NCBI GenBank assembly: GCA_913040915.1
Contig: CAJWHW010000002.1
Coordinates: 32,001 to 96,000, forward strand
DNA length: 64,000 nt
DNA from: an uncultured Fidelibacterota bacterium
GTDB taxonomy: Bacteria > Fidelibacterota > Marinisomatia > Marinisomatales > UBA1611
Reading direction: 5' to 3'
Shown here piece by piece: positions 2,717 to 24,940 of this stretch. The translations under genes were made by a program, and so were the position numbers. The notes below the pieces were generated by a model that was not told the DNA's origin, searched no databases, and saw nothing but the letters and a program-made list of their open reading frames with translations. Position 1 is the stretch's first letter. Each line of letters starts with the position of its first letter.

Positions 2717-3145
2717 TTATATATAATTGATTAATGTTTTTAACGCCTCTAAGTATCCAGGTTTCCCTAAACCTGAAATTTGATCTATGCACTTTTCCTT
2801 TATTACTGATATTCTTCTGAATTCCTCTCTTTGATTTATGTCACTGATGTGGACTTCAACTACTGGAGTCTTTATAGAAGAAATTGCATCTCGAAGTGCA
2901 TATGAATAATGTGTTAATGCACCTGGGTTAATAATTATTCCATCAAATTTGTGTACAGAATTGTGAATTTGATCAATAAGATCTCCCTCGTGGTTAGATT
3001 GGAACCAAATTATTTCATGCTCAGCTGATTCTATTTGAGAGTCAAGCCAAGATTCAATATCATTTAATGAATCGGTTCCATAAATATCAGGTTCTCTTAA
3101 CCCTAATAGATTGAGATTAGGACCATTTAAGACTAAAAACTTCAT
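2717..3145 (-). CDS. aroQ: Type II 3-dehydroquinate dehydratase
   Basis: LNGPNLNLLGLREPDIYG, QSNHEG, INPGALTHYS, EVHIS motifs. Confidence 0.97.
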   Translation of the reverse strand: MKFLVLNGPNLNLLGLREPDIYGTDSLNDIESWLDSQIESAEHEIIWFQSNHEGDLIDQIHNSVHKFDGIIINPGALTHYSYALRDAISSIKTPVVEVHISDINQREEFRRISVIKEKCIDQISGLGKPGYLEALKTLINYI

Positions 3146-4212
3146 TGAATTACTCGAAGAGATTCTTTGATTAATTGCTCAGAAACTTCTTGAGACGTAT
3201 TTCCTTTGCCAAGCTTATCTAAAACCACAAAATGAAGGATTCCATTTCTAACTTTTTTATCCTTTTTAACAAAAGATAAAATCGTATTTGGGTCTAATTT
3301 TTTAACATTAGGCAGTTTAAGTTTATTAATTGTATTAAATAAGTGAATTTCATCATCTGCGTTGAGCCGTCCGATTTTTTTGGATATCCACGCTGCACAT
3401 TTCATTCCTAGAGCTACAGCTTCACCATGTCGTATTCGTCCATATCCAGAATACGCTTCCAAAGCATGACCAATGGTGTGACCAAAATTTAATAGTTTTC
3501 TCAATCCATCTTCCCGTTCATCTTTAGAAACAATTTCAGCTTTAATCTCACAAGATCTGAATATCGCTTTTTCAAAAGGAAAATTATTTAAATCATCAAG
3601 CCAAAATGATATGTCGTTAAAGAAATTACGATCCCATATAGCACCATATTTTATAATTTCACCCAAACCAGCGATAGTCTCTTCTTTGGGCAAAGAGTTC
3701 AATATTTTAGGATCCACCAAAACTCCTTTTGGTTGATAAATAGATCCAATAAGGTTTTTCCCTTCAGCAATATTAATTCCTGTTTTCCCTCCAATTGCAG
3801 AATCCACCATAGCCAAAAGCGTTGTGGGAATTTGATAATAATCAATACCACGCATGAAAGATGATGAAACAAACCCACCTACATCACCGACCACACCACC
3901 ACCCAATGCCAATACAACTGAAGATCTGTCACATTTGTATTCAATCATCTGGTTAATTAATTTGCTGAATTCATTTAAGCTTTTAGCAGTCTCTCCTATG
4001 GGAAGTGTTAAATAATCTATATCAAAGTCAGCATTTTTCAGTTCATTCATTAGTTGAAATCCAAATAATTCCATGAGCTTATGTTGAGATATAATTATCC
4101 ACTTTTGACCGTGATTATGTTCAGACAAAAGTGCAGGGGCGCTCTGAAGTAGCCCCGATTTTACCTGAATTGGGTAAGAGCGAGTGCCTAGCTTAACTTG
4201 GATATTTTTCAT
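3142..4212 (-). CDS. aroB: 3-dehydroquinate synthase
   Basis: ALGGGVVGD, PTTLLAMVDSAIGGKTGIN, LNFGHTIGHALE, HGEAVALG. Confidence 0.97.
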   Translation of the reverse strand: MKNIQVKLGTRSYPIQVKSGLLQSAPALLSEHNHGQKWIIISQHKLMELFGFQLMNELKNADFDIDYLTLPIGETAKSLNEFSKLINQMIEYKCDRSSVVLALGGGVVGDVGGFVSSSFMRGIDYYQIPTTLLAMVDSAIGGKTGINIAEGKNLIGSIYQPKGVLVDPKILNSLPKEETIAGLGEIIKYGAIWDRNFFNDISFWLDDLNNFPFEKAIFRSCEIKAEIVSKDEREDGLRKLLNFGHTIGHALEAYSGYGRIRHGEAVALGMKCAAWISKKIGRLNADDEIHLFNTINKLKLPNVKKLDPNTILSFVKKDKKVRNGILHFVVLDKLGKGNTSQEVSEQLIKESLRVIQ

Positions 4213-4706
4213 GATTTTAGATTAATTAAAATTTCATTTGTGATTATTTCAGGAGTTTTTCCATCAGTTTCTATAGTTATATCTGCCGTAGATGAATAAT
4301 GATCTTTTCGTTTTGACCACAATTCACTAAGTGAATCTTCTGGGGAATTTTGAGCCAATAGAGGCCTTTTATTTGAATACTTTAATCTATTTGTTAATTC
4401 TCTAATGGAAGCTGTTAATAAGATAGTAGTACCATTTCTTCTAATCAGGTTACGGTTTTCTTCTTTCAGTATAATTCCACCACCACAAGATATAACTGAA
4501 TCTGAAACTTTTTTAAGATGTTCTGTTTCTATTTTTCTGAAAATATTTTCTCCATCTATCCTAAATATATCAGAAATAGTCCTTTTTGTACTTTTTTCAA
4601 TCTCTTCATCTAGGTCAATAAATGGCTTTTTCACCTTATTTGCTAACAAGATACCTATGGTTGATTTACCTGTACCCATCATTCCAATTATGAAAATGTT
4701 CATCAA
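4209..4706 (-). CDS. aroK: Shikimate kinase
   Basis: P-loop GMMGTGKST; DLDEEIE, GENIFR, SCGGG and RPLL motifs. Confidence 0.95.
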   Translation of the reverse strand: MMNIFIIGMMGTGKSTIGILLANKVKKPFIDLDEEIEKSTKRTISDIFRIDGENIFRKIETEHLKKVSDSVISCGGGIILKEENRNLIRRNGTTILLTASIRELTNRLKYSNKRPLLAQNSPEDSLSELWSKRKDHYSSTADITIETDGKTPEIITNEILINLKS

Positions 4707-5863
4707 TATTTTGCAGTAGCATTTAAATGAGCTTTGAGTTGCTCCATGGAATCGCCTCCAAACTTTTCCAATAATGCATCAACAAGTACAAAACATAACA
4801 TACTTTCTGCAATGATTGAAGCTGCAGGTACAGCACATGAATCTGTTCTCTCTTTATGTGCGTTTTTCTTTTCTTTAGTATTAATATCAATAGATCGTAA
4901 TGGTTTGATAAGAGTTGGGATTGGTTTCATTGCAATTTTTAGAACTATAGGCTGGGCATTACTCATCCCACCTTCAATTCCGCCCGCATTATTTGAGTAT
5001 CGGGTAAATTTTTTCCCATCATAACCAATTTCATCATGAACTTCACTACCAAATATTTTTGCGCCTACAAAACCACTGCCAATTTCTATTGCTTTAAATG
5101 CATTCACACTCATCATCATTGCTGATAAGCGCGTTTGTAGTTTTCTATCCCATTGAGTATGTGCACCAAGTCCATAGGGAACCCCTGTTGCAATCACTTC
5201 AAAAATCCCTCCTACTGAATCACCTCTTTCTTTGGCACTTTTGATTTTGTTTATCATTTTTATTTCAGCATCATTATCTAGACAGCGAACATCCGATTCA
5301 TCTGCTTTTTCACTCAATTGATTTGGTGTAAGATTCTTGGGCAAAGGATGATCATCCCTTATATCATGAATCTCGATCACTCGGCTTCCAACTTCTATAT
5401 CCACATCTTCCAATAATTTTCGACAAATGGACCCAAGTGCTACACGCATGGCGGTTTCTCGTGCACTGGAACGTTCCAAAACATTACGAATATCATCGAA
5501 TCCATATTTTTGAACGCCAGCCAGATCTGCATGCCCGGGTCGTGGGAGAGTTACTTTCCGAATATCACCTTCTACTGGATTTATGGACATTTTCTTAGTC
5601 CAGTTTTTCCAATCCTTATTTTTAATAATAAGTCCGACAGGTGCACCTATAGTTTTACCATGGCGAATACCAGACCAAATTTCAGCATAATCACTTTCAA
5701 TTTTCATTCTTCCTCCACGGCCATATCCCATTTGGCGTCGCTGAAGATGTCTACCTATATATTTTTCAGAAATTTCTAATCCTGCAGGTATGCCATCTAA
5801 GATACCTAGCAAACCTTTTCCATGAGATTCCCCAGCTGTTAAAAATTTAATTTGTCTTAACAT
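4703..5863 (-). CDS. aroC: Chorismate synthase
   Basis: TAGESHG, PRPGHADL, ERSSARETA, GGIEGGMSN, MKPIPTL. Confidence 0.97.
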   Translation of the reverse strand: MLRQIKFLTAGESHGKGLLGILDGIPAGLEISEKYIGRHLQRRQMGYGRGGRMKIESDYAEIWSGIRHGKTIGAPVGLIIKNKDWKNWTKKMSINPVEGDIRKVTLPRPGHADLAGVQKYGFDDIRNVLERSSARETAMRVALGSICRKLLEDVDIEVGSRVIEIHDIRDDHPLPKNLTPNQLSEKADESDVRCLDNDAEIKMINKIKSAKERGDSVGGIFEVIATGVPYGLGAHTQWDRKLQTRLSAMMMSVNAFKAIEIGSGFVGAKIFGSEVHDEIGYDGKKFTRYSNNAGGIEGGMSNAQPIVLKIAMKPIPTLIKPLRSIDINTKEKKNAHKERTDSCAVPAASIIAESMLCFVLVDALLEKFGGDSMEQLKAHLNATAKY

Positions 5864-6663
5864 AATTTTAATTTTAATACCTTTTTAATTTTTCCTAAGT
5901 CAACTTGTTTAGAAATATTTTGTTTAAACCATATATCACAAGATGCCAAACCCTGGGCAATGAACATATCTAAACCAATTACGGTTTTAACTTTAACCTC
6001 AATACCTTTTTTAAGCCATTTTGTTTGAAGAGGGTTGTAAATAGTTTCAACCAGTATATTTTTTTTGCAAAAATTAACACTCGGAATTGATTTAATATCT
6101 GGCCACATACCAATTGGAGTGCAGTTTATGATTATTTGGTAATGATGCGGCTTGTTTAATTGTTGAACTTGTGTTGTATGTATAGTAGATATTTTTTTTA
6201 TCCATTTGACAAGGTTCTTTGCTCTTTCAATAGTACGGTTAACAATTGTTATTGATTTTACTTTTTCCATAATCAGGGCATAAGCTACTGCCCGTGCTGC
6301 ACCCCCAGCACCAAGGAGCACACAATTTTGTTCATTTAAATCAATACCATTGATTTCCATGGCTCTGGAAAATCCAATCCAATCAGTATTATAGCCCGTA
6401 GAGTTATCTACGCAATTGACAGCACCAATGATTTGGGCGGCATCATCCAATCTATCCAAGAAAGGAATAATGGATTCCTTGTGTGGCAGGGTGACATTGA
6501 AACCATTTAATTGGTTTGAATTTATAAATAAGTCCATTGAATTATCTTCTACCTGAATTTTTTCATATTCAGCTTTAATATTTAATTGTTTATATATTTC
6601 GTGATGTAACGTTGTACTCAAACTATGAGCGATAGGGTCACCAATAACTGCAAATCGTTTCAT
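5857..6663 (-). CDS. aroE: Shikimate dehydrogenase
   Basis: GDPIAHSLS, NVTLPHKE, GYNTD, LGAGGAARA, INCTPIGM. Confidence 0.95.
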   Translation of the reverse strand: MKRFAVIGDPIAHSLSTTLHHEIYKQLNIKAEYEKIQVEDNSMDLFINSNQLNGFNVTLPHKESIIPFLDRLDDAAQIIGAVNCVDNSTGYNTDWIGFSRAMEINGIDLNEQNCVLLGAGGAARAVAYALIMEKVKSITIVNRTIERAKNLVKWIKKISTIHTTQVQQLNKPHHYQIIINCTPIGMWPDIKSIPSVNFCKKNILVETIYNPLQTKWLKKGIEVKVKTVIGLDMFIAQGLASCDIWFKQNISKQVDLGKIKKVLKLKLC

Positions 6664-7907
6664 CGACGCAACCTTGCTAATCCATCATAGAACTCTGGAT
6701 AAGAAATAGAAGCACAGTCCGGATAGTCTAAAAGCAATTCACCATCACTAATAATTCCTGCAACAGTAAAGGCCATTGCTATCCTGTGATCCCGAAATGT
6801 TTCAATTTTTGCACCCTTTAATTGTGTTGGTCCATGAATAATAAACCCATCTTTAAATTCTTCGATTCTACCACCCATATTTTTCAAATTGCTACAGATG
6901 GCATGAATTCTATCACACTCTTTTACACGGAGTTCTTCTGCGCCTCTGACCACAGTTTTTCCAATTGCCTGGGTAGCCAAAATTGCAAGTATAGGTAATT
7001 CATCAATTATCCCAGGTACATCTTTTTTGGAAATTGATGTGCCCCTTAACTGTTGATAAACTACCCGTATATTACCTATTGGTTCTCCTGAATTGGTCCA
7101 TTGTTTGATGCAGGTTATCCTAGCACCCATTTTTTGGAGTATACTATAAAAACCAATTCGAGTGGGATTCCTTAAAATACTATTCAGAGTCAAATCCGAG
7201 TTTGGAACCATTGCTGCAGCTGCAGCAAAAAATGCAGCTGTGGATGGATCACCTGGGACCGTAAGTTGTATAGGAGCTAGGGGACGATTAGTTTTGGAAA
7301 TAATTGTCTTTAGTTTATTAGTTAAGATGTTAGCGCCCATACTCTTTAGCATTCGTTCAGTATGATCCCTAGAAAGAATCGGTTCAGTTATTGATGTTTC
7401 ATTTTTTGAGCCTAAGCCTGCCAGAAGTACAGCTGATTTTACTTGGGCACTTGCTATTGGTGAATTATAATGAATATTATTCAGATTACTCTTGTAAATG
7501 GTTATAGGCAATTTCCCATGATTACTTTTTGATTCCAATCCCATTTGTGATAATGGATCTAAAATACGATCCATAGGACGTGAAGAGAGAGAATCATCTC
7601 CAATTAAAGTTGCATTAATGCCCTTCATGTGTAAAAGTCCTAAAAGCAATCGTGCTGTAGTTCCCGAATTTCCACAGTCTAATGGTTTTGTTGGGTCTAA
7701 AAATTTTCCCCCAATCACGATCAAAACATCTCCATTATTTTCAAATTGAATACCACAGCTTTTTAGACAGGATATAGTAGTTTGTAAATCGGCACCAGTG
7801 GATAAATTAGAAATCCGAGACTCTCCATCAGAAATAGCTGCAAACATAAGAGCGCGATGAGAGATTGACTTATCTCCCGGCAATGAGATTTTACCCTGAA
7901 TGGCCAT
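6660..7907 (-). CDS. aroA: EPSP synthase
   Basis: PGDKSISHRA, DCGNSGTT, ASAQVKSA, ELRVKECDRI, DHRIAM. Confidence 0.97.
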   Translation of the reverse strand: MAIQGKISLPGDKSISHRALMFAAISDGESRISNLSTGADLQTTISCLKSCGIQFENNGDVLIVIGGKFLDPTKPLDCGNSGTTARLLLGLLHMKGINATLIGDDSLSSRPMDRILDPLSQMGLESKSNHGKLPITIYKSNLNNIHYNSPIASAQVKSAVLLAGLGSKNETSITEPILSRDHTERMLKSMGANILTNKLKTIISKTNRPLAPIQLTVPGDPSTAAFFAAAAAMVPNSDLTLNSILRNPTRIGFYSILQKMGARITCIKQWTNSGEPIGNIRVVYQQLRGTSISKKDVPGIIDELPILAILATQAIGKTVVRGAEELRVKECDRIHAICSNLKNMGGRIEEFKDGFIIHGPTQLKGAKIETFRDHRIAMAFTVAGIISDGELLLDYPDCASISYPEFYDGLARLRR

Positions 7908-9240
7908 TAGACTTTAATTCATCTGCAATCAAAAAAGCTAATTCTATAGCCTGATTTGCATTAAGGCGTGGATCACAGTGAGTATGGTAACGGTTTGATA
8001 AATCAGATTCAGATATATCATCTAATCCGCCAGTACATTCTGTCACATTTTGTCCAGTCATTTCTAAATGAATACCTCCTAAATGTGAATCATTATTTTT
8101 GTGTATTTTAATATTTTGTTTTACTTCTTCTAAAATATGATCAAATGGTCGTGTTTTAATTCCACCAGAACTCTTAATTGTATTACCATGCATTGGGTCG
8201 CAGGACCAAATAACAGTTCTGCCTTCAGACTGTACTTTTTCGACTAGCTTGGGTAAGTAGAATTCAACTTTTTTATGACCAAACCTTGTAATTAATGTAA
8301 TCCTACCAGCCTGATCATTGGGATTAAGAATATCGAGAAGCTTAATTAATTCGTCAGCATCTAAAGAAGGACCACACTTAATGCCAATTGGATTATTGAT
8401 TCCTCGGCAAAATTCTATATGAGCACTTTCTTCAAATCGCGTCCGATCTCCGATCCAGACAAAATGGGCTGATGTGTTATAAATATCACCAGATGTTGAA
8501 TCGATTCGAGTCATTGCCTCTTCATATGGAAGTAATAATGCTTCGTGACTTGTATAATAATGCACTTGCCGGAGTTGAGGTGTATTGCTAGAATTAATTC
8601 CTAGTGCATCCATAAAGTTCAAGCTTTCTTGAATCTGATGAGCTAAATGTCGGTACCTTTCACCCTGCGGACCGCTTTTCACAAAACCCATATTCCAGGA
8701 GTTAACATGGCGAAGATCAGCGTAGCCTCCATCGGCAAAAGCTCGTAGTAAGTTTAAAGTAGATGCGGCTTGAGAATAGGCCTTTAGCATTCGGTCTGGG
8801 TCTGGTTGTCGTTTATTTGCTTCAAAATGGATATCATTAATTATATCACCAGTGTAGCTTGGGAGTTCTATCCCATTTTTAGTTTCAGTAGGACTTGAAC
8901 GAGGTTTGGCAAATTGTCCTGCCATTCTGCCAACTTTAACGACAGGGAGATTGGCTCCAGATGTTAGGATTACTGCCATCTGTAAAATGACCCTAAATGT
9001 ATCCCGAATATTGTCAGCATTAAATTCTGTAAAACTTTCTGCGCAATCTCCACCTTGTAAGAGAAAGCCATTGCCTTCTGCCACTTCTGCCAGTGATCGC
9101 TTTAAAGAACGAACTTCACCCGCAAAAACTAAAGGCGGAAATCCTTTCAATATATTTTCAACTTCACTTAAATGATCTTGATTTGAATAATTTGGAATAT
9201 GTTTTGCTGTAAAATTCCGCCAACTATCAGGTTGCCACAT
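7891..9240 (-). CDS. Class II DAHP synthase
   Basis: PPLVFAGE, LQGGDCAESF, GRMAGQFAKPRS, WIGDRTR, CDPMHGNT, CDPRLN: class II family signatures. Confidence 0.95.
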   Translation of the reverse strand: MWQPDSWRNFTAKHIPNYSNQDHLSEVENILKGFPPLVFAGEVRSLKRSLAEVAEGNGFLLQGGDCAESFTEFNADNIRDTFRVILQMAVILTSGANLPVVKVGRMAGQFAKPRSSPTETKNGIELPSYTGDIINDIHFEANKRQPDPDRMLKAYSQAASTLNLLRAFADGGYADLRHVNSWNMGFVKSGPQGERYRHLAHQIQESLNFMDALGINSSNTPQLRQVHYYTSHEALLLPYEEAMTRIDSTSGDIYNTSAHFVWIGDRTRFEESAHIEFCRGINNPIGIKCGPSLDADELIKLLDILNPNDQAGRITLITRFGHKKVEFYLPKLVEKVQSEGRTVIWSCDPMHGNTIKSSGGIKTRPFDHILEEVKQNIKIHKNNDSHLGGIHLEMTGQNVTECTGGLDDISESDLSNRYHTHCDPRLNANQAIELAFLIADELKSNGHSG

Positions 9241-9964
9241 TTTTTAATTTCTCCATACGATTATCTAAAGATTCCATTGCCAGTTTGACATTTTTTATCA
9301 TGTCTTTTGTATAGGGGTTATAAAGTTGCAGATCTGTATATAATTCCCACGTATCGTTACAGGTTTGATCTACTAAGTCCAGTAGGTCGCGAAACCCTTG
9401 AGTGTCAATAACAGTTTTACTGATACCATATTCCTTTAGCATTCTACCAAGAAAATGTGTTACTCCCTGAGTTTTAGCGGCCAGTTTATCATGTTGATCT
9501 GGAGACATTTCCATAACTTGGATTCCTTGATCAGTGAAAAATTGTTTCCAGAAAGAAAATTGGTTATGGTGATCTCGAGTATTGTCCATCATCATTTTTA
9601 GGCGATTATTCGAAAAATATGAATCGGGTCCAAACATGGGGTGGGTAGCAATGATACTTACCTGTTCCGGAAGTATCTTTTTCATGACTTCAGTAGGATA
9701 TTTTTTCACTGAACATACATCAATTACTAAGGCTTGTTCAGAAAGCTTTGAAGCAATATTCTGGATCACGGATTCAAAGTGCCTTATCGGAACTGCAATG
9801 AAAATTACCTCTTCCTTTAAAACAGTGGTTAAGTCAGCAATTTCCACTCCGGTGAATGTATGAGGAGGGGTCAGGTCGTATGTTTTAATAGCGAACCCTT
9901 TTTGTAAAATATTGGCTAGAACTTTTCCAAATCTGCCAAAACCTATTAATCCTACACTTTTCAT
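9227..9964 (-). CDS. tyrA: Prephenate/arogenate dehydrogenase (no ACT domain)
   Basis: GLIGFGRFG, DVCSVK, THPMFGP, HDKLAA. Confidence 0.9.
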   Translation of the reverse strand: MKSVGLIGFGRFGKVLANILQKGFAIKTYDLTPPHTFTGVEIADLTTVLKEEVIFIAVPIRHFESVIQNIASKLSEQALVIDVCSVKKYPTEVMKKILPEQVSIIATHPMFGPDSYFSNNRLKMMMDNTRDHHNQFSFWKQFFTDQGIQVMEMSPDQHDKLAAKTQGVTHFLGRMLKEYGISKTVIDTQGFRDLLDLVDQTCNDTWELYTDLQLYNPYTKDMIKNVKLAMESLDNRMEKLKNVAT

Positions 9965-10534
9965 TTATTCTCCAAGGTGTTTAACCCCAAGAAATAAGGT
10001 CAAATTATGCTTTAGGTCATGAATACTTTCTTGGAGGATCTCAAGTCCATAAAGGTCTGCGCAAGCTTTATTGGCAATAACACCTGCAGTTGGTGGTAGT
10101 TTTCCTTCTGATAACCTTCTTGCTGCTTCTGCTGTATCATCTTCCTCGATAAGTGGACGTGTCCAAAAATGTTCACTCAGGTAATCTTTACACTGCCGCA
10201 GAGCTTGTTGGTGAGAATGGATTTCAGTCACATCTCCAATATTAGTACCGGTTAATCCTAAAAGATTTTGATTAACAGTGATGTGAAACATTTCTACAAT
10301 TTCACAGCGATATTTTGCTAAAGCTTCTACACTTTCGATCACGACTCCGCCTTGGGCATTTTCCATAGCAAAAACACCATACTCTGTAACACCATTTTCA
10401 ACACCATGCAGCACAGATTTTGATGAAATTTGATAAATAACTTTTGCATCTAAAATTCCGTGGTTTTTTGCAAATTCAGATGCAGCTTCTTCTGAAAAAC
10501 TTCCTTTTCCGCCTTGTATACCAATAGTACTCAT
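9965..10534 (-). CDS. pheA: Prephenate dehydratase, catalytic domain only
   Basis: IQGGKGSFSEEAA, MENAQGG, SHQQALRQC, DTAEAA, N-x-TLF in place of N-x-TRF; ends before an ACT domain. Confidence 0.85.
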   Translation of the reverse strand: MSTIGIQGGKGSFSEEAASEFAKNHGILDAKVIYQISSKSVLHGVENGVTEYGVFAMENAQGGVVIESVEALAKYRCEIVEMFHITVNQNLLGLTGTNIGDVTEIHSHQQALRQCKDYLSEHFWTRPLIEEDDTAEAARRLSEGKLPPTAGVIANKACADLYGLEILQESIHDLKHNLTLFLGVKHLGE

Positions 10535-11301
10535 AAAATTCCTTTCAGTTCTTTAATAAATTGGTTTGTTTTTGTAATAGGATCATCACAGTTATCCATA
10601 TTATTAATAATTGCTGATCCTACAACTGCACCATCCGAATAATTATTAAACCAAACAACATCATCTTTATTACTAATACCAAACCCTACTATAAATGGAG
10701 TCGTACTATTTTCACGAACTCTTGTTAAATAATTTTTTAAAGCATCCCTTGATATAAGATTATCTCCAGTAATACCTAATATGCTTACTGCATAAATGAG
10801 ATCTCCTGCTAATATTGAAATGTTTTTAATTCGTTCATTAGTTGTATTTGGTGCTACCAACAAGATAGGGGAGATGCCTTTTTCTTTGGCTAACTCACAA
10901 AATGACTCGGCCTCATCTAATGGTAAATCAGGAAGAATCAAACCATCCACACCTGAAGCAACACAACGATCTAGAAAAATCTCGTGCCCCATTTTTAAGA
11001 TCGGATTATAATATCCCATCAGGGCTAAAGGGATGGAAACTTTATTACGTATCTGCGTTGCTTGCTCAAAAATCAAATTTAATGTTATACCATTATCTAA
11101 GGCCTGCTGGCTAGATGCTTGAATTATAGGTCCATCTGCTTGTGGGTCAGAAAATGGAATTCCAATCTCAATCATATCTGCCCCTGCATCAGTGGCAGCA
11201 CAGACTAACTCTACAGTACTGTCTAAATTTGGATATCCTGCTGTTATGAAAGGAATGAGTTTTTTTCGAGGTTCTTTAAATAAAGCTTGAATACCGTTCA
11301 T
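10531..11301 (-). CDS. trpA: Tryptophan synthase alpha chain
   Basis: [39 protein letters not shown]. Confidence 0.97.
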
Positions 11302-12503
11302 AGTTTTTCTCCTAAGGTTTCAGCAACGGTATTAACGTCTTTATCACCACGACCAGAAAGGCAGACCAAGACATCTTCATTTGGTTTAATTCCATTATTT
11401 GATTGACGTAAATAAGCTATAGCATGAGCAGTCTCAAGTGCTGGTAGTATACCTTCTTTTTTTGATAACCATTGAAATGCGTCTAATGCTTCCTGGTCTG
11501 TGGCAGAGCGGTATTCTATTCTACCTACTTCGTTTAAATAACTATGTTCTGGGCCGATGCCAGGATAATCTAGGCCAGCGGAAATGGAATGGGGTAGAAT
11601 AACCTGCCCATCATTATTTTGAAGTAAAGTAGAAGCAGCGCCATGCAATACTCCAAATTCTCCTTTATTCATAGTGGCAGCATGTTCTCCAGATTCAAGC
11701 CCTTTACCAGCTGCTTCAACTCCAATAATCTTTACATCATCTTTCAGAAATGAATAAAATAATCCCATTGCATTTGATCCGCCTCCCACACAGGCAACTA
11801 AACGATCTGGTAAAATTTTATCAGATTGTTGAGAAAATTGTTTTTTTGTCTCCTTCCCAATTATTGATTGAAAGTCTCTTACAAGCATTGGATAAGGATG
11901 GGGGCCAACGGTTGAGCCAATTAAATAATAGGTGGATTCAACATTAGTTACCCAATCACGGATAGCTTCATTGGTGGCATCCTTTAAAGTCATGCTACCT
12001 GAAGACACTGGTCTGACTTCAGCATTAAGTAATTTCATCCGAAATACATTTAATTTTTGTCTTCGTATGTCTTCTTCGCCCATATAAATAATACATTCTA
12101 ACCCAAATCGTGCAGCAACCGTAGCGGTGGCAACGCCATGCTGCCCAGCACCAGTTTCAGCAATAATTCGTTTTTTCCCCATTTGCTTAGCCAATAAGAT
12201 CTGCCCCAAAGCATTGTTGATTTTATGAGCTCCGGTATGATTTAGATCTTCTCTCTTTAGCCATATATTAAATTCCAATTCTTTTGAAATACGTTCTGCG
12301 AAGTAGAGAGCTGTCTCACGTCCTGAATAATGATTAAGTAAATTATTTAACTCATCTTGAAAAAAGCGATCATTTGTTGCCCTAAGATATTGTTTCTCTA
12401 ATTCTTCTAGAGCTGGAATAAGTGTCTCGGGTACATACTTTCCACCAAACTTATCAAAATGTCCTCGTTCATCTGGAAGGTTATAATTATCAAATTTTCT
12501 CAT
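11298..12503 (-). CDS. trpB: Tryptophan synthase beta chain
   Basis: [15 protein letters not shown] (PLP lysine), [27 protein letters not shown]; likely start ATG 12503 ([16 protein letters not shown]). Confidence 0.97.
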
Positions 12504-12510
12504 TTTTTTA

Positions 12511-13158
12511 TCATGATTTAAGTAAACCAGAGAATACATTAAAATTTGTGACAGTATCTCTGATATTTTTAAAAAATAATTTAATTTTTAGGTGATCTTT
12601 TATGCCTGGTGATTTTTCTAAACCACTATTTAAGTCAATGGCATCAGGTTTCATTAATTTAATTGCCTTCAAAACATTTTCTGAATTAAGTCCGCCAGAA
12701 AGGATAATCGGTTTATCTGTTGGATTTATAAAAAGTGACCAGTCAAAAGTTTCTCCTGTGCCTCCATATTTATCCTTTGAAAAAGTATCAAATAAAAATG
12801 CATCTACATTATAATCATTCATAATTGAAAAGCTACCTGAATTTCTAATATGAAGTGCTTTTATTACAGGTAATTGAAACTGTTCACAGAATTCCGGTGA
12901 TTCATCTCCGTGTAATTGAATTATGTTCAAGGGCACATTTTGGACTGCTTCTAAAATGAATGGCATAGACTGATCAACAAAAACCCCCAGTTTTATTGTT
13001 TTATCAGGTAAATGATCTGAAATAAATTTTGCTTTTTTGATAGTGATAGCACGGGGACTCTTATCATAAAAAATAAATCCAATTGCTGCTGCACCAAATT
13101 CTAATGCGCATTGAGCATCTGCAATATTTGTAATCCCACATACCTTTGTTGCCATCAT
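12511..13158 (-). CDS. trpF: Phosphoribosylanthranilate isomerase
   Basis: [38 protein letters not shown]. Confidence 0.95.
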
Positions 13159-13916
13159 ACTAATTCTCCCACTAAATCGTCTAAAGCTTTGCCAGGATTT
13201 CCAGTTTTCATGAGTGAAGTTCCAACTAAAACCGCATCATACCCTAAATCATAAACATATTTAAGATCATCGGGAGACTTTATTCCGCTTTCTGCTACTT
13301 TTAGAGAAGATCTTGGTAAATAATTTACTATCTTTGAAAAATAGGATATATCAGTATTCATTGTTTTTAAATCTCGACAGTTAACACCCACAATTTCTGG
13401 TTTAATCTCTCCAATAATTTTTGCATTTTCATCACTGTGGAATTCTACCAATACATCTAGATTCATTTTATTCCCAATAGCTATTAATTCAGCAATTTTC
13501 CTATCATCTAAAGCTTCTGCAATAAGTAAAAAAGCATCCGCTTTGGCGAAACCTGATTGAATTATTTGACATGGATCAATAATAAAATCCTTACGAAGAA
13601 TAGGAATAGATACTTCATTCTTTATTGATTCTAAAACGTCAATATGTCCGCCGAAAAACTGTTGATCTGTTAATACTGAAATTGCTGAAGCACCTGCTGA
13701 CTCATAATCCTTAGCAATCTGAATTGGGTCAGCATTTGGCAGGATTAAGCCTTCACTGGGAGATTTCATTTTAATTTCAGCTATAATCGATAACCTTTGA
13801 TTTGTAAGAGCATCTTTCAGGCTTAATGTATGAAATGGTTCAACCCCATTAGCAAAAGGCGGCATGTGCTCTATCTCTTTCTGCTTGATATCTAAAATTT
13901 GTTCAAGGATATTCAT
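13155..13916 (-). CDS. trpC: Indole-3-glycerol phosphate synthase
   Basis: IIAEIKMKSPSEG, AISVLTD, PILRKDFIID, VAESGI. Confidence 0.96.
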   Translation of the reverse strand: MNILEQILDIKQKEIEHMPPFANGVEPFHTLSLKDALTNQRLSIIAEIKMKSPSEGLILPNADPIQIAKDYESAGASAISVLTDQQFFGGHIDVLESIKNEVSIPILRKDFIIDPCQIIQSGFAKADAFLLIAEALDDRKIAELIAIGNKMNLDVLVEFHSDENAKIIGEIKPEIVGVNCRDLKTMNTDISYFSKIVNYLPRSSLKVAESGIKSPDDLKYVYDLGYDAVLVGTSLMKTGNPGKALDDLVGELV

Positions 13917-14908
13917 TTTGTCATTTGTGATAACACATTTAGTGCCGCACCTGAATCAATAGACTCAGATGCTTTTAATAATCCTTCTTTTAGGGTTTTT
14001 GCCTTATTACCTACAACGATCCCAGCAGCTGCATTAATTAAAACAATATCACGTTTGGGCCCCATTTCACCATTTAAAATGTTTTTAATAATCTTCGCAT
14101 TTTCTTTTGGGTTGTAACCCATCAGATCATCTAAAGAAGCTTGATTTAAACCTAGCTTTCTAGAATCAAATTCGATTGTTGAAACATGCCCACCATTTTG
14201 CATTTGGCTGATTTTTGTGGTAGTTGTTGTAGAGATTTCATCTAAACCATCACGGCCGTGAAAAACCATTACATCTGTAGAACCTAATGCTTTTAATACG
14301 TTTGTTTGAACCTCAGTCAAATCAGGATGAAAGATGCCCATAGCTTGAGCTTTAACATTTGCAGGATTACACAGGGGACCAAGAATGTTGAAAACTGTTC
14401 GTGTGGCTAAAGCAGTTCTTGCTCCAATAGCATGTTTCATAGCTGGGTGGTATGCCGGTGCGAACATAAAACCCAATCTATAATTTTCTATATCCTCTAA
14501 AAATTTATCTACAGATTTGTCAATAATAATTCCTAATTCTTGAAGAACATCGGCCGATCCTGATTTAGATGTCATGGAACGGTTCCCATGTTTTGCAACA
14601 CGCACACCTGTCCCAGCTACAACAAATGTTGCTGCAGTGGAGATATTGAATGTACCCGATGCATCACCGCCAGTACCACACATATCAATGGCTGGTGTAC
14701 TTAGTGGAACTGTAACCATTTTTTCTCTCATGGCCTTTGCAAAGCCTGTGATTTCATCCACTGTTTCACCTTTAGCCCGAAGCGCTACTAAAAATCCAGA
14801 AATTTGTGCATCATTATATTCCCCTGACATAATGGATAGCATTACTCTAAAAGCTTCATCTTTAGAAAGATTTTGTTTATCTAATAATTGTTCTAATATT
14901 TGTTTCAT
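13913..14908 (-). CDS. trpD: Anthranilate phosphoribosyltransferase
   Basis: DMCGTGGD, FNISTA, KHGNRSMTSKSGSADVL, RTVFNILGPLCNP. Confidence 0.97.
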   Translation of the reverse strand: MKQILEQLLDKQNLSKDEAFRVMLSIMSGEYNDAQISGFLVALRAKGETVDEITGFAKAMREKMVTVPLSTPAIDMCGTGGDASGTFNISTAATFVVAGTGVRVAKHGNRSMTSKSGSADVLQELGIIIDKSVDKFLEDIENYRLGFMFAPAYHPAMKHAIGARTALATRTVFNILGPLCNPANVKAQAMGIFHPDLTEVQTNVLKALGSTDVMVFHGRDGLDEISTTTTTKISQMQNGGHVSTIEFDSRKLGLNQASLDDLMGYNPKENAKIIKNILNGEMGPKRDIVLINAAAGIVVGNKAKTLKEGLLKASESIDSGAALNVLSQMTK

Positions 14909-14962
14909 TGTAAGCTCAAAGACTCTAGTTATAACTGTAGTTATATTTTTGTTTTAACAAGA

Positions 14963-15532
14963 TCAACATTTTATTGTTAAGAAGTTTTTTATTATTTGTA
15001 AACCATTCTCAGTTGCTATGGATTCAGGATGAAATTGTAATCCATAGACTGGATCATTTTTGTGTTCTATGGCCATAATTAGGCCATTGTTTAATTCTGC
15101 TGTTATTATTAATTCTTTAGGGAGTAATTTTTTGTCAGCTACTAATGAATGATAGCGAGTGGCCATAAAAGATCCTGAAAATCCTTTGAATAGAGCAGAT
15201 CCATTATGTTGAATCTTTGCAGTCTTACCATGAACAATCTCCGATGAATGAACTACTGTGCCACCATAAGCAATTGTAATTGCTTGATGGCCAAGACAGA
15301 CTCCAAGTATAGGAATTTCTTTCCCATATTTTTTAATAATATTTACAGAATGACCCGCATTTTCAGGCCTCCCGGGTCCAGGAGAGATGACAATATGAGT
15401 TGGATCCCAATGAACAATATCATCCAATTCGAATTGATTATTTCGTATCACTTTCACATCTGGATTAAGAACACCGATGTATTGTACCAGATTAAATGTG
15501 AAAGAGTCGTAATTATCAATAACTAAGATCAT
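14963..15532 (-). CDS. trpG: Anthranilate synthase component II (glutamine amidotransferase)
   Basis: IDNYDSFTFNL, ISPGPGRP, LGVCLGHQ, RYHSL, QFHPES. Confidence 0.96.
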   Translation of the reverse strand: MILVIDNYDSFTFNLVQYIGVLNPDVKVIRNNQFELDDIVHWDPTHIVISPGPGRPENAGHSVNIIKKYGKEIPILGVCLGHQAITIAYGGTVVHSSEIVHGKTAKIQHNGSALFKGFSGSFMATRYHSLVADKKLLPKELIITAELNNGLIMAIEHKNDPVYGLQFHPESIATENGLQIIKNFLTIKC

Positions 15533-17013
15533 GCTGCTAATCCATCCTCTGCGAAGTCAATTGCTGACATGATAGCCTTGGCCTTACTTACCGTTTCCTC
15601 AAATTCTTTGGTGGGGTCTGAATCATAGACAATGCCTGCACCGGACTGAAAATGGACGGATCCATTTTTCATAATCATAGTCCTTATAGCTATACAAGTA
15701 TTTACATTGCCGGTAAAATCAAAAAACCCGACAGCACCTGAATAAATATTTCGTCGTTCAGGTTCTAGATCTTTGATTATTTCCATAGCTCGAATTTTGG
15801 GAGCACCTGTAACCGTACCAGCAGGGAAACCACTCATAAGCGCATCAAATGGATCTTTATGTTCGGCAAGCTTTCCTTTTACATCAGAAACAATATGCAT
15901 AACGTGGGAATAATTTTCGATTACCATATTCTCGGGAATGGTAATTGACCCAAATTCTGAGACACGGCCCACGTCATTTCTGCCCAGATCTAAAAGCATA
16001 AGGTGTTCTGCTCTTTCCTTTTCATCATTTAATAGTTCGTGCGCTAATTTTTTATCTTCATCAACTGAGTCCCCACGTTTACGCGTGCCTGCAATAGGGC
16101 GGATTTCCACATTGCCATCTTCTACTTTTACTAAGAGTTCAGGTGATGCACCAATAATATCAAAATCATTAATCTTTAAATGGAACATATATGGTGATGG
16201 ATTAATGTTTCTCAAAGCTCGGTAAAGGGTTGTAGCCTCTACATCGGTGGCCCTTTCGAACCGCTGACTGAGAACCAGTTGAAAAATATCACCGTTGACA
16301 ATATACTCTTTAGCTTTAGCCACTGCTTTCTCAAATTTATTTTGATCAAAATTTGAAATTACTTTACTTTTTTTTACTTGTATTGGCGTCTGATAATCCA
16401 CATTAGTATGTAGTGATTCGCCAATTATATCTATCTTTGAATGTGCTTTATTAAATTGGAATTCCAAATCTGCTGAATCATCAATATTAACATTTGAGAT
16501 TACTAATGCAGACCCTTTTAAGTGATCGAAAGCAATTATGTTTTCAAATAACATAAAGACTGAATCAGGTATATTTAATGCTGAATCTGTGTGAATTGGA
16601 ATATCTTCGAACCAGGTGATAGTCTCATAGCCAAGGTAACCAACTAGTCCACCGGTAAAAGATGGAATCCCGGGAAACTTCATCATTTTATATTGAGATT
16701 GAATATCGCGAAGTAAATCTAAAAATGGTGTTTCCACTTTATTTTTGTTACCATTTTTATAGATAATTGTTTGTCCATTTTTGTGTGTCAATATTTGTTT
16801 TGGATTAATTCCTACATAAGAATATCTGGTATATTGATTCCCTTTTTCTACAGATTCTAGTATGAAAGCATATTTAGCCTTTTGAGATAAATGTATCCAT
16901 GCTGCCACGGGCGTAAGAAGATCTGCCAGGATACGTTTATATACAGGTATAGTTCGGTTCCCTTGGGAAACCAAATCTTGAAATTCTTTGTAGGTCAGTT
17001 GAGTTTTATCCAT
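15529..17013 (-). CDS. trpE: Anthranilate synthase component I
   Basis: ILESVE, NPSPYM, RPIAGT, EHLMLLDLGRND, PAGTVTGAPKIRAM; likely start ATG 17013 because the TTG at 17022 lies in the terminator U-tract. Confidence 0.96.
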   Translation of the reverse strand: MDKTQLTYKEFQDLVSQGNRTIPVYKRILADLLTPVAAWIHLSQKAKYAFILESVEKGNQYTRYSYVGINPKQILTHKNGQTIIYKNGNKNKVETPFLDLLRDIQSQYKMMKFPGIPSFTGGLVGYLGYETITWFEDIPIHTDSALNIPDSVFMLFENIIAFDHLKGSALVISNVNIDDSADLEFQFNKAHSKIDIIGESLHTNVDYQTPIQVKKSKVISNFDQNKFEKAVAKAKEYIVNGDIFQLVLSQRFERATDVEATTLYRALRNINPSPYMFHLKINDFDIIGASPELLVKVEDGNVEIRPIAGTRKRGDSVDEDKKLAHELLNDEKERAEHLMLLDLGRNDVGRVSEFGSITIPENMVIENYSHVMHIVSDVKGKLAEHKDPFDALMSGFPAGTVTGAPKIRAMEIIKDLEPERRNIYSGAVGFFDFTGNVNTCIAIRTMIMKNGSVHFQSGAGIVYDSDPTKEFEETVSKAKAIMSAIDFAEDGLAA

Positions 17014-17020
17014 TTTGCGC

Positions 17021-17050
17021 AAAAAAAAACCCCGATCATTGCCGGGGTTA
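17021..17050 (-). terminator. Attenuator terminator of the aromatic operon
   Basis: mRNA UAACCCCGG-CAAUGA-UCGGGG-U9, ending 7 nt before the trpE ATG. Confidence 0.9.
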
Positions 17051-17083
17051 AAGTGCAGTCAATATATACAGGTATCCCTGGGA

Positions 17084-17152
17084 CTACGTAACCCCTTTAA
17101 GGCTAAAAAACCAATACCAGTTGTAATAATTTTCTATGTTTTTGTAATTCAT
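17084..17152 (-). CDS. Leader peptide MNYKNIENYYNWYWFFSLKGVT (Tyr/Trp/Phe attenuator)
   Basis: Manually translated 22-aa ORF with 4 Tyr, 2 Trp and 2 Phe, followed by antiterminator and terminator hairpins. Confidence 0.9.
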   Translation of the reverse strand: MNYKNIENYYNWYWFFSLKGVT

Positions 17153-17160
17153 AGCATCAA

Positions 17161-17190
17161 ATATTAAGGAAAAGTGAGAACTGTATCCAA
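17161..17190 (-). promoter_or_regulatory. Candidate sigma70 promoter of the aromatic leader
   Basis: TTGGAT-18 bp-TAATAT, ending 8 nt before the leader ATG. Confidence 0.45.
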
Positions 17191-17192
17191 CA

Positions 17193-17465
17193 TTATTTAT
17201 TTTTTTGAAATTTTTTTGAAATTTTATAAACAGGATCAAAAATTGAAGCAATATCTTCTTTATTTAGCTTTCCATCCAATTTATTGGCAAGATGCTCTAT
17301 AATTTCTTTTTCTCGATTTGGATCATGGATTTTAATATTATTGGATGCTTTGATTTCACCAATCTGTTTTGAAATAGAAAAACGCTTTAAAAGAAAATCT
17401 AATATTTGATTATCTAAATAATCAATTTTGTCTCGCAGTGAATCAATTTTCTCTTTTGGGTTCAT
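17193..17465 (-). CDS. Monofunctional chorismate mutase (CM_2 type)
   Basis: LRDKIDYLDNQIL...KRFSISKQIGEIK...IHDPNREKEI. Confidence 0.9.
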   Translation of the reverse strand: MNPKEKIDSLRDKIDYLDNQILDFLLKRFSISKQIGEIKASNNIKIHDPNREKEIIEHLANKLDGKLNKEDIASIFDPVYKISKKFQKNK

Positions 17466-17522
17466 GAATTAAACTACACAAATCATAAATTGGTTAGAAA
17501 GTGAAATAATCAAAATATTTAA

Positions 17523-18665
17523 TTAAGTTTGTTCCAATGCCTGTTTGAGGTCAGCAATAATATCTTTGTGGTTTTCTATCCCCACGGAAATTCGCACTAA
17601 ACCATCTGTGAGGCCTCGGGCATCTCGTTCTTTTTTCGGGACATCCGCATGGGTCATGGTAGCAGGGTGAGTGATCATGGTTTCCACAGAACCCAAACTT
17701 TCTGCTAACTTTGCCAATTGAACAGAATTCATCACAATTTTTGCTGCGGGGATGCCGCCAATTAATTCAAAAGAAATCATACCACTATATCCGGACATTT
17801 GTTTTTTGGCAATAGCGTGGCAAGGATGAGAAGGGAGTCCAGGATATGCTACCCGGAATACTTTAGGATGAGCCTCTAAATATTCCGCTACTGCTTGGGC
17901 ATTTGAAAAATGCTTTTTCATTCGTATATCCAATGTTTTAACACCGAGAATGGTGAGCCAGCAATCAAAGGGCCCGGGAACGGCGCCAATGGTTTTTTGG
18001 ATGAATTTCAGTTTTTCAAACAAGTCTTCCCTATTGGTAATTACTACGCCCCCAATCAATTGGTTATGGCCGCTTAAATATTTGGTAGTACTGTGCATCA
18101 CCAAATCTGCACCGAATTCCATTGGTCGGAGGAAAACAGGTGTAGCAAAGGTAGAATCCACTCCAAATAAGATATTATGTTTTTTAGCAATTTCACCAAC
18201 AGCTTCAAGATCTGTGATCTTTAATAATGGGTTTGTGGGTGTTTCTATCCAAATTAATTTTGTTTTGGGTTGAATTGCATTTTCAACATTTGTAGGAATG
18301 GAAGAATCTACATACGTGAAATGTAAATCATAATTCACTAAGATCTGGTTAAAATACCGGGACACGCCACCGTAAACATCATCGGAACAAATGATATGGT
18401 CGCCTGCTTTCAACAATTTTAAAACACCATCCACAGCGGACATACCACTAGCAAAGGCAATTCCAAATTGTCCTCCATCAAGCTCGGCTAAAATTTCTTC
18501 CATAACCTGTCTTGTGGGGTTGGATGAACGGGTATAGTCAAATCCTTTATCTTGGCCAACTTCTTCCAAAACGTAAGTGGCTGTTTGGTAGACAGGCGGT
18601 AGGATAGACCCAGTAGTAGGATCAGGTTCTGTACCTGCCTGGACAACTTTTGTATCAAATTTCAT
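17523..18665 (-). CDS. metB: Cystathionine gamma-synthase/lyase family PLP enzyme
   Basis: DYTRSSNPTR, FASGM, WIETPTNP, HSTTKYLSGH, AESLGSVE; exact activity (MetB, MetC or Cth) uncertain. Confidence 0.8.
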   Translation of the reverse strand: MKFDTKVVQAGTEPDPTTGSILPPVYQTATYVLEEVGQDKGFDYTRSSNPTRQVMEEILAELDGGQFGIAFASGMSAVDGVLKLLKAGDHIICSDDVYGGVSRYFNQILVNYDLHFTYVDSSIPTNVENAIQPKTKLIWIETPTNPLLKITDLEAVGEIAKKHNILFGVDSTFATPVFLRPMEFGADLVMHSTTKYLSGHNQLIGGVVITNREDLFEKLKFIQKTIGAVPGPFDCWLTILGVKTLDIRMKKHFSNAQAVAEYLEAHPKVFRVAYPGLPSHPCHAIAKKQMSGYSGMISFELIGGIPAAKIVMNSVQLAKLAESLGSVETMITHPATMTHADVPKKERDARGLTDGLVRISVGIENHKDIIADLKQALEQT

Positions 18666-18688
18666 AAAAGATCCTGTGTTCTAATTCA

Positions 18689-19981
18689 TTATTTTGCCAG
18701 TAAATATTCCTTTAGGTCAGAAAATTTTTTGGACATTTTTATGGATTTTTTTTCTTTTTTTATAGTAATCTGCAATGAATCTGGCAGGGATGTTTTAAAT
18801 CCAGTAATGGGTTCAATCACATCTGCAAATTTCCCCGGGTGGGCTGTGGATAAAACAACTCCCGTTGATATTGAATTTGTTTTCTCTCTATATTTTTTTA
18901 ATCCCAAGACACCAACTGAAGTGTGTGGATCAATCAAATAGCCAAATTCATCTTGAATACTTTTAATAGATTCTTTTGTCTCTTCATCAGGGAAGCTCCA
19001 ACTGGCAATATCCATTTTTACTTGCCTTATATTATCGTGAAATAAGTCTATTATTCGATCCAAATTACTGGGCACACCAACATCCATTGCATTAGATATT
19101 GTTTGTACAGCATCTTGATGTTGAATTATTCCACTGCTTAAAAAGTGTGGGAAAGTATCATTTGCATTTGTGGAAGCTATAAATTTCTCAACTGGAACTC
19201 CCATACGGTTTGCGAAAAGCCCCCCGGTTAAATTCCCAAAGTTTCCACTAGGAATGCTAAATATTATTGGCTTGTATTTACTGCAGTGTTTCCAAGCCCA
19301 GGCATAATAAACCGATTGAGGCAATAGTCTAGCTATATTAATTGAATTAGCAGAACTTAATGATAAACTACTACGCAAATCGATATCTTGAAAAGAAGCT
19401 TTAACTAATCGTTGGCAATCATCAAAGGAGCCATCTATTTCTAAAGCAGTAATATTGCCACCCAAAGTTGTAATTTGTTTTTCCTGAATGGCACTTACTC
19501 GATTGGAAGGATAAAGAATAATAACATCAATGCCATCTACATTAAAAAAACCGTTTGCAACGGCACTTCCAGTATCACCAGATGTAGCTACTAATATCTT
19601 TAACCTATCACCATTATTTTCAAGAAAATAAGACATCGTTTGAGCCATAAACCGTGCAGCAAAATCCTTGAAGGCGAGTGTCGGCCCGTGAAATAACTCC
19701 AATATAGAATCGGTTTTATTTAATTCTTTAATTTGCATGGGAAAATTAAATGCCAATTCACAAATATCAGTTAATTGAGCATGTGTTAAATCACCTTCTG
19801 TGAATGGATAAATCATACCAACAGCTAATTCGGGGTAACTAAAATCAGATTTAAAAAAGTCTATCCCTAATTGAGGAATAGTTGCAGGCATATAAAGTCC
19901 ACCATCCGGCGCTAATCCATGGAACAATGCTTCCTTGAATCCGACTGAAATAGCCTTATTATTTGTACTGTAAAAGCGCAA
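18689..19981 (-). CDS. thrC: Threonine synthase
   Basis: GLAPDGGLY, ELFHGPTLAFKDF, ATSGDTG, SANSINIAR, STAHPGKF. Confidence 0.96.
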   Translation of the reverse strand: MRFYSTNNKAISVGFKEALFHGLAPDGGLYMPATIPQLGIDFFKSDFSYPELAVGMIYPFTEGDLTHAQLTDICELAFNFPMQIKELNKTDSILELFHGPTLAFKDFAARFMAQTMSYFLENNGDRLKILVATSGDTGSAVANGFFNVDGIDVIILYPSNRVSAIQEKQITTLGGNITALEIDGSFDDCQRLVKASFQDIDLRSSLSLSSANSINIARLLPQSVYYAWAWKHCSKYKPIIFSIPSGNFGNLTGGLFANRMGVPVEKFIASTNANDTFPHFLSSGIIQHQDAVQTISNAMDVGVPSNLDRIIDLFHDNIRQVKMDIASWSFPDEETKESIKSIQDEFGYLIDPHTSVGVLGLKKYREKTNSISTGVVLSTAHPGKFADVIEPITGFKTSLPDSLQITIKKEKKSIKMSKKFSDLKEYLLAK

Positions 19982-19984
19982 GTA

Positions 19985-24897: not shown

Positions 24898-24940
24898 ATC
24901 CGGTACTGATCTGTCAAAAAGCATAAAAAACTTCTTTTAA

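Follow-up and report, generated by a model that had tools for sequence, protein, structure and literature searches.

A candidate leader-peptide attenuator with tryptophan, tyrosine and phenylalanine codons in front of a 16-gene aromatic amino acid operon in an uncultured Marinimicrobia bacterium

Which amino acids does a leader peptide report on when it stands in front of a single operon that makes all three aromatic amino acids? This question is raised by a 64,000-nucleotide stretch of DNA (the window) from an uncultured bacterium of the Fidelibacterota (Candidatus Marinimicrobia; GenBank assembly GCA_913040915.1, contig CAJWHW010000002.1, positions 32,001 to 96,000), on the minus strand of which a short open reading frame (ORF) rich in Trp, Tyr and Phe codons precedes trpE and 15 further genes. 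An earlier reading made from the letters of the window (the sequence-only reading) had proposed that this ORF is the leader of an attenuator that responds to each of the three end products of the operon. The leader-attenuator observation as a whole was confirmed here, and the interpretation given to it is supported overall; we consider it likely that the element is a trpL-type ribosome-mediated attenuator in which Trp, Tyr and Phe all serve as control codons. The mechanism is textbook (Yanofsky) attenuation and the new part is the three-amino-acid codon set, which would have been widened beyond Trp because the operon makes all three aromatic amino acids.

The leader ORF runs from an ATG at position 17152 to a UAG stop codon at 17086-17084 and, including its YYNWYWFF core, reads exactly as had been claimed. 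Eight of its 22 codons are aromatic, in keeping with the short leader ORF of a trpL-type attenuator, and the last Trp codon lies 18 nt from region 2, i.e., the 5' strand of the antiterminator (all feature coordinates are collected in Table 1). The spacing between the last Trp codon and region 2 is similar in Escherichia coli trpL. Judging from the sequences compared, a 22-codon ORF with eight aromatic codons, at a position kept across the phylum, is far beyond chance.

Downstream of the ORF, a terminator hairpin (17049-17028; 8-bp stem with five GC pairs, -11.6 kcal/mol) is followed by T9 at 17029-17021; 34 bases separate the leader stop codon from the hairpin, and the terminator ends 8 nt 5' of the trpE ATG (17013). 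This 3:4 terminator with its run of nine U, as described in the sequence-only reading, was the top-ranked terminator-like site on both strands within positions 2000-21500. As terminator-like sites in this interval were not more frequent than in shuffled sequences (12 found as compared to 11.8 expected), the support for the terminator comes from its position and conservation and not from the scan. Region 3 (17050-17044) is common to the terminator and the antiterminator.

The equilibrium fold of the full leader always consisted of the terminator and the middle hairpin. Since the relevant question is kinetic, the switch was folded as nascent RNA ending short of terminator arm 4, the ribosome-covered portion being masked. 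RNA cut in this way formed the antiterminator GGGGUUA (17095-17089)/UAACCCC (17050-17044) together with the GUAGUC/GACUGC and CAGG/CCUG helices (-20.4 kcal/mol), which are exactly the 2:3 pairs and inner helices claimed earlier. In the masked folds, a ribosome with any of codons 9-15 in its A site left the antiterminator as the minimum-energy structure (-20.4 to -23.3 kcal/mol), and one that had reached the stop codon buried region 2, so that the antiterminator could not form and the terminator was left without a competitor. Region 2 stays free with Tyr9, Tyr10, Trp12, Tyr13, Trp14 or Phe15 in the A site, and Phe16 is borderline. Of the full classical set of hairpins asserted by the sequence-only reading, the antiterminator and the terminator thus stood, in the folds as well as by covariation (see below), and the 1:2 hairpin exists but is weak: its energy is only -4.6 kcal/mol, its conservation is poor (52.9% of alignment cells paired as compared to 40-48% when the partner was slid), and it is missing from the ribosome-free minimum-energy fold, where the antiterminator forms instead. 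On these models, the element may lack a convincing anti-antiterminator. The 186-nt leader region as a whole was not unusually stable (z = -0.96 as compared to shuffles), and no Rfam leader family was found in the window at the gathering level.

On the proposed mechanism, when charged tRNA-Trp, tRNA-Tyr and tRNA-Phe are all plentiful the ribosome would reach the UAG stop codon inside region 2 and occlude GGGGUUA/GUAGUC; as region 2 would then be covered, the terminator AACCCCGG/UCGGGGUU with U9 would form and transcription would stop before trpE. If any one of the three were scarce, the ribosome would be expected to stall on the control codons within codons 9-15, leaving region 2 free to capture the terminator's 5' arm (UAACCCC) ahead of the synthesis of arm 4, and RNA polymerase would read through into the 14.3-kb operon. 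The predicted response is therefore that of an OR gate with the three amino acids as separate inputs. Read-through is predicted for a leader that is not translated, unlike in E. coli trp, because the 1:2 hairpin appears too weak to enforce termination in the absence of translation.

The arrangement upstream of the leader suggests that it has a dedicated promoter. An exact TAATAT at the place of the predicted -10 box was found for 31 of the 86 leaders before trpE in the phylum, and 64 of 86 had TAnnnT starting 16 to 9 nt before the start codon; a TTGg/TTGC element 17-18 nt 5' of the -10 box also recurs in relatives. The short distance of 8 nt from the conserved -10 box to the ATG suggests that the leader mRNA is leaderless or nearly so, its probable start lying no more than a couple of bases from the leader ATG. 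These conserved promoter-like boxes led us to reject the idea that the leader is no more than the end of the chorismate mutase transcript.

The relatives came from the same phylum. The closest TrpE relatives (74-81% identity) belong to metagenome-assembled genomes (MAGs) or single-cell assemblies of Candidatus Marinimicrobia/Neomarinimicrobiota; at a cut-off of E <= 1e-100, trpE was found in 105 of 401 Marinimicrobia genomes (61 of 190 high-quality ones), and 95 loci from the trpE-bearing genomes plus the window made up a set of 96 trpE loci. Leaders were called by position only: the ORF had to be 10-45 codons long and to end 15-45 nt ahead of the best combination of hairpin and T-run 5' of trpE. 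This rule found a leader and terminator at 86 of 96 loci. Among the ten loci missed, three lack enough upstream DNA (L045, L165, L221), one was lost through a finder error and has a GTG-start leader visible by eye (L179), and six gave no call (L160, L163, L166, L167, L222, L223), with a DAHP synthase gene preceding trpE in the last two. In an informal outgroup of 80 loci from unrelated phyla, chosen by TrpE, the few leaders seen were WW, WWW or WWWW.

The alternative pairing is conserved along with the leader. At least five bases of the terminator 5' arm pair just past the leader in 54 of 83 distinct sequences (mean z = -2.06 as compared to dinucleotide shuffles; 44 sequences with z < -2), and regions 2, 3 and 4 co-vary between families (GGGGUU/AACCCC, GAGGUU/AACCUC and GUGGGC/GCCCAC). 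In an alignment of 37 sequences, 68.3% of the antiterminator cells were paired, as compared to 28-51% with the partner slid, and the covariation score was reached by none of 500 shuffles; helices 3 and 4, which form the middle hairpin, showed changes on both sides in eight of ten pairs, and 89.6% of the terminator cells were paired. The peptide itself is conserved only in its aromatic class and in a C-terminal G-G/G-V/G-L patch that overlaps region 2, and the order and number of its aromatic residues vary freely between leaders.

The sequence-only reading had set out beforehand that leader composition should follow operon content, with Trp alone where phe, tyr and aro genes are absent. This was examined in the 96 trpE loci and in 52 aro/phe/tyr units of the same phylum, across which operon content varies widely, by counting Trp, Tyr and Phe codons in the 8-residue window with most aromatic residues; the expectation held in every direction. 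Leaders of trp-only operons (12 loci from seven genera and four families, with unrelated genes downstream) averaged 2.75 Trp and 0.67 Tyr+Phe codons, as compared to 1.86 Trp and 3.79 Tyr+Phe codons where any other aromatic gene was present as well (56 loci from 39 genera and 16 families). The difference in Tyr+Phe gave P = 8.6e-5 at the genus level and P = 0.0066 at the family level (Mann-Whitney test), values that overstate the case as kin are not independent. A WWW motif occurred in 8 of the 12 trp-only leaders as compared to 1 of the 56 others, 34 of which had no two adjacent Trp, and Tyr or Phe made up 0.08 of the non-Trp neighbours of Trp in trp-only leaders as compared to 0.72 in the others.

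Fused trp+phe+tyr+aro operons have mixed Trp/Tyr/Phe leaders, in which the order of the three residues is shuffled between genera and the aromatic class is kept; several of these leaders carry a single Trp and 5-6 Tyr/Phe codons (e.g., L036, L039 and L158). Three lineages have tyrA without pheA (family f22, where a previously unnamed gene of the operon turned out to encode prephenate dehydrogenase, and loci L041 and L195), and their leader cores hold 3-5 Tyr and 0-1 Phe codons. Two close relatives (L127 and L145; 78% TrpE identity) have the DAHP synthase gene directly after trpA, pheA-tyrA having been lost, and each leader is short of one Tyr and one Phe codon, at positions that differ between the two; they lie apart on the TrpE tree, where L127 is sister to L031 (support 97). 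It is thus not only the Trp codons that are conserved, as the Tyr and Phe classes are kept or lost with the matching genes.

Units without trp genes were collected by taking 60 further loci anchored on aroA. Of 44 trp-less phe/tyr/aro units, 31 had a leader and terminator, in most cases immediately behind the chorismate mutase gene, and three more trp-less leaders were found among eight other loci. By hand count, Trp codons are absent from 20 of these 34 leaders and single in the other 14, while every one of the 86 leaders before trpE contains one or more. In homologues of the same family that lack trp genes (L278, L282/L283 and L291), the two Trp positions are replaced by Ser, Phe or Gly, and units beginning with tyrA (L284, L285 and L287) have Tyr-rich leaders. 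Two genomes, G001 of the window's own genus (L290, G001:C216) and G012 (L289, G012:C236), retain only a trpE stump of 40-57 codons, one with an in-frame stop, and their leader now directly precedes pheA-tyrA-DAHP synthase-aro; it keeps both Trp codons, as would be expected for a recent deletion. Across the 401 genomes, aroA was found in 299, as compared to the 105 with trpE, and many Marinimicrobia lineages may be Trp auxotrophs that keep Phe and Tyr synthesis. Loci L278 and L288 (genomes G197 and G143) have TrpG-like and partial TrpE-like genes, possibly pabA and pabB, and about 1 kb of further DNA between the chorismate mutase gene and the Tyr/Phe leader, which stands well away from that gene.

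Some genomes carry two kinds of leader. In G178, a WWW-type leader precedes trpE, and a second leader with three Phe, four Tyr and one Trp codon and its own terminator (-17.1 kcal/mol) lies in the 275-nt gap between trpA and pheA, ahead of pheA-tyrA-DAHP synthase-aroAECKBQ. Within locus L254 (G178:C1), this second leader-terminator module occupies 7513-7788 in trpE orientation, inside the trp-phe-tyr-aro string, which it appears to divide in two, the first part under Trp sensing and the second under Tyr/Phe sensing. In G050, the trp-only operon follows a WWW leader, and a DAHP synthase-aroB-E-K-A-C-pheA-tyrA operon, separate from it, follows a leader of the Tyr/Phe-only kind. In G075 (L252, G075:C4), a Tyr/Phe-only leader with terminator precedes tyrA-aroE-aroC-aroK, and a WWW leader with terminator precedes a TrpB-like paralogue (31% identity to TrpB), with the trp operon elsewhere; the two adjoining modules lie at about 2700-3090 and 4450-4930.

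As compared to known attenuators, the element resembles trpL of E. coli and Salmonella in its short leader ORF with control codons at a fixed distance before region 2, in the position of the stop codon, at which a ribosome completing the leader covers region 2, and in 2:3 and 3:4 hairpins that exclude one another, with a U-run directly ahead of trpE. It differs from trpL in having Tyr and Phe codons besides Trp in the control block, in the control of 16 genes instead of trp alone, in the weak 1:2 hairpin and in the probably leaderless mRNA. The E. coli thr (Thr and Ile) and ilv (Ile, Leu and Val) attenuators likewise carry codons for several amino acids in one leader, and shortage of any one of these should relieve termination, as proposed here. 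Unlike in thr and ilv, the amino acids concerned are the three aromatic ones and the codon set changes among relatives with the operon genes; we know of no documentation of such a change for thr or ilv.

The closest printed case is, by analogy, the aroR leader of Corynebacterium glutamicum, a Phe-Tyr-Phe leader before aroF (Neshat et al. 2014, by way of PMC11802643 and PMC4046766). According to the available text of these sources, aroR has mixed aromatic codons before a shikimate-pathway gene, and it is the Tyr/Phe-only leaders of trp-less units that resemble it most; it has no Trp codon and belongs to another phylum, the C. glutamicum trp genes have a WWW leader of their own and are not under aroR, and the likeness is one of description only. 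Attenuators before aromatic supraoperons, including a Desulfovibrio phe-tyr-trp operon, were predicted by Song et al. in 2005 (PMC1173090, Table 7), and these share with the present locus a terminator/antiterminator before one operon for Phe, Tyr and Trp synthesis. Those entries are database predictions, and in the available text of that paper leader codons are not discussed and the word "leader" occurs 0 times. The full-text literature, subscription-only papers lying outside it, yielded no description of a Trp/Tyr/Phe leader or of an attenuator in Marinimicrobia; the statement in the sequence-only reading that no described example was known to it needs qualification in view of aroR and the 2005 predictions.

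Several results weigh against the three-amino-acid reading. Its support consists of the ORF, the alternative structures, their conservation and covariation, and the match between codons and gene content across the phylum. One metatranscriptome contained 6% of the sequence words of the window, and contigs from four RNA runs were short and fell only in metB and at the thrC-metB junction, apart from a chimeric piece, with none that bears on transcript starts, ends or read-through at the leader. In C. glutamicum, Phe limitation acted on aroR and Tyr supply was reportedly without effect, as far as the available text goes (PMC11802643); a Tyr codon in a leader thus does not prove that Tyr is sensed. 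With the A site at Phe16, the ribosome mask already covers the first bases of region 2 (the G-run), so that the last Phe codon may work poorly. A permissive scan scored the Rfam family Trp_leader (RF00513) at 20.7 bits (E = 0.078), short of the gathering threshold of 41, and the element is therefore not a sequence-level member of that family. Among nine independent pairs on the tree that differ in having the full operon, the association was directional and not significant (Tyr+Phe >= 4: 5.3 pairs the same way, 0.3 opposite, 3.3 tied; median sign-test P = 0.0625); a Tyr+Phe threshold of 3 gave a median P = 0.25, and just three independent pairs contrast trp-only operons with the rest. Individual loci also fit less well: trp+pheA units without tyrA (L155, L174, L178 and L185) have one Phe and one Tyr codon each, most f24 leaders retain a single Trp close to the Tyr/Phe run and two overlapping frames are open there, the position rule picked the wrong frame at L037 and L195 (corrected by eye), and at L199 a complete gene string follows a first leader of WWW type, which we attribute to the presence of a second attenuator. 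Finally, one Trp codon persists in the 14 trp-less leaders mentioned above, and no leader was found in 13 of the 44 trp-less units and in 5 of the 8 other loci.

One could suppose that only the two Trp codons are sensed, as in an ordinary Trp attenuator, and that the Tyr and Phe codons are passengers which descent or a constraint at the nucleotide level (e.g., an A/U-rich 5' hairpin) has retained, the link with gene content reflecting shared ancestry. The outcome of the independent-pairs test, the concentration of trp-only leaders mostly in one deep clade (f26+f28), the aroR Tyr codon with no effect in the available report, and a 5' hairpin involving the aromatic codons that is paired slightly above its slid controls (59.8% as compared to 37-52%) all leave room for this. 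We nonetheless regard it as unlikely, since full-operon leaders with one Trp and 5-6 Tyr/Phe codons are hard to account for by Trp sensing, and the shuffling of residue order with the aromatic class kept is unlike what a nucleotide constraint would be expected to produce. Moreover, trp-less units keep Tyr/Phe-rich leaders and lose Trp, L127 and L145 dropped Tyr and Phe codons after the loss of pheA-tyrA, and G178 and G050 carry both leader types, each before the matching genes.

Instead of working through the supply of charged tRNA, the aromatic run might act through the nascent peptide, which could arrest the ribosome or be a small hydrophobic peptide with a separate function. Aromatic-rich nascent chains can slow ribosomes, and trans-acting roles are described, in the available text on it, for peTrpL, the Sinorhizobium trpL peptide; however, a peptide that is not conserved beyond its aromatic class and C-terminal patch, whose aromatic residues vary freely in order and number, and whose composition shifts with operon content is not what would be expected of an arrest motif, and we give this explanation little credence. 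Slighter still is the chance that there is no attenuator at all, i.e., that the hairpin and T-run just end the upstream thr/met/chorismate mutase transcript and the ORF is incidental. The chorismate mutase gene does end 40 nt before the leader ATG with no other terminator after it, but the ORF, aromatic block, region 2 and -10 box are kept across families, including at loci without an upstream chorismate mutase gene, the antiterminator covaries with the terminator, and the same module is found inside the G178 gene string and before other operons.

Attenuation with Trp, Tyr and Phe control codons is thus the reading that we prefer, and it can be taken further. The leader may be a modular, fast-rewritten "address label", in which the codon classes for Trp, Tyr and Phe are gained, lost or shared out between two tandem attenuators as trp, tyrA, pheA and shikimate genes are fused to the operon or depart from it; as codon classes would follow gene gain and loss, the codon mix would predict the products of the operon, down to tyrA without pheA. 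The 5' end of the mRNA would be the first leader codon and, as there would be no 1:2 hairpin, termination would require a ribosome that had finished the leader. Taken jointly, these propositions are a tentative extension, about which we are more hesitant than about the attenuator itself.

Table 1. Predicted elements of the attenuator and adjoining genes (positions refer to the window)
Feature	Position	Strand	Description
Controlled operon	2717..17013	-	trpE-G-D-C-F-B-A, pheA, tyrA, class II DAHP synthase, aroA-E-C-K-B-Q
Intrinsic terminator, regions 3:4	17021..17049	-	AACCCCGG/UCGGGGUU, loop 6, then T9
Middle hairpin nested in antiterminator	17055..17087	-	GUAGUC/GACUGC, inner CAGG/CCUG
Region 2 (antiterminator 5' strand)	17082..17095	-	GGGGUUA then GUAGUC; overlaps last leader codons and stop
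Leader peptide ORF	17084..17152	-	22 codons plus stop; 2 Trp, 4 Tyr, 2 Phe; MNYKNIENYYNWYWFFSLKGVT
Control-codon block	17105..17128	-	codons 9-16, Tyr-Tyr-Asn-Trp-Tyr-Trp-Phe-Phe (YYNWYWFF)
Predicted -10 hexamer	17161..17166	-	TAATAT; ends 8 nt 5' of leader ATG
Predicted -35 hexamer	17185..17190	-	TTGGAT; directly past chorismate mutase stop codon, 18 nt above -10
Chorismate mutase gene	17193..17465	-	90 aa, CM_2; ends 40 nt 5' of leader ATG

With regard to the operon itself, NCBIfam named all 16 ORFs downstream of the leader, from trpE to aroQ and including prephenate dehydratase and prephenate dehydrogenase, and so bore out the gene list of the sequence-only reading. The operon spans about 14.3 kb, its neighbouring genes overlap or abut with a sole gap of 54 nt between trpG and trpD, and its gene string recurs in relatives. 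PheA (window 9965-10534, minus strand; 189 aa) has only a PDT domain by Pfam, in which no ACT domain was found, and TyrA (9227-9964, minus strand) is short at 245 aa. The usual allosteric modules may thus be missing and allosteric control of the two enzymes may be reduced; if so, more weight would fall on the attenuator. The chorismate mutase gene, which most relatives within the order also have at this place, lies immediately upstream of the leader and outside attenuator control; further upstream are a cystathionine-synthase-like gene, thrC and thrB, and the thr/met block ahead of the chorismate mutase gene has a SAM-I riboswitch (73.8 bits; 24785-24899, minus strand) on its upstream side.

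About 240 nt past aroQ, between convergent genes, a hairpin at 2455-2480 (AACCCCGAC...GTCGGGGTT) resembles the attenuator terminator stem; it has no minus-strand T-run and may terminate the plus-strand gene at 2004-2435. A full-length bacterial class A RNase P RNA (272 bits) was found at 60126-60511 on the plus strand. The assembly from which the window was taken comprises 1.86 Mb in 71 contigs and is 85% complete, with a contamination estimate of 2.3%. One of its contigs, 2.5 kb long, carries a second DAHP synthase-aroA-aroE fragment (L294, G000:C63:187-1410), the AroA of which is 56% identical to the window copy; this fragment probably represents a second strain or contamination in the bin.

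Overall, these data would add the aromatic amino acids, all three of them, to the range of multivalent attenuation. The phylum offers an unusually clear natural experiment, in that a single RNA switch has leaders that are Trp-only, Tyr/Phe-only, Tyr-rich or fully mixed, depending on which genes follow it. This matching of codon classes to genes provides comparative evidence, obtained without cultures, that each class may be a working sensor; the main value of the locus lies in this phylum-wide coming and going of leader codon classes with the controlled genes. The codon content of leaders may be of use for annotating operon function and auxotrophy in MAGs, and the element would be a compact three-input sensor for synthetic biology. 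For the organism, the finding suggests how a pathway operon of 14 kb could be regulated, with no dedicated regulator protein, in the uncultured and streamlined marine lineage SAR406.

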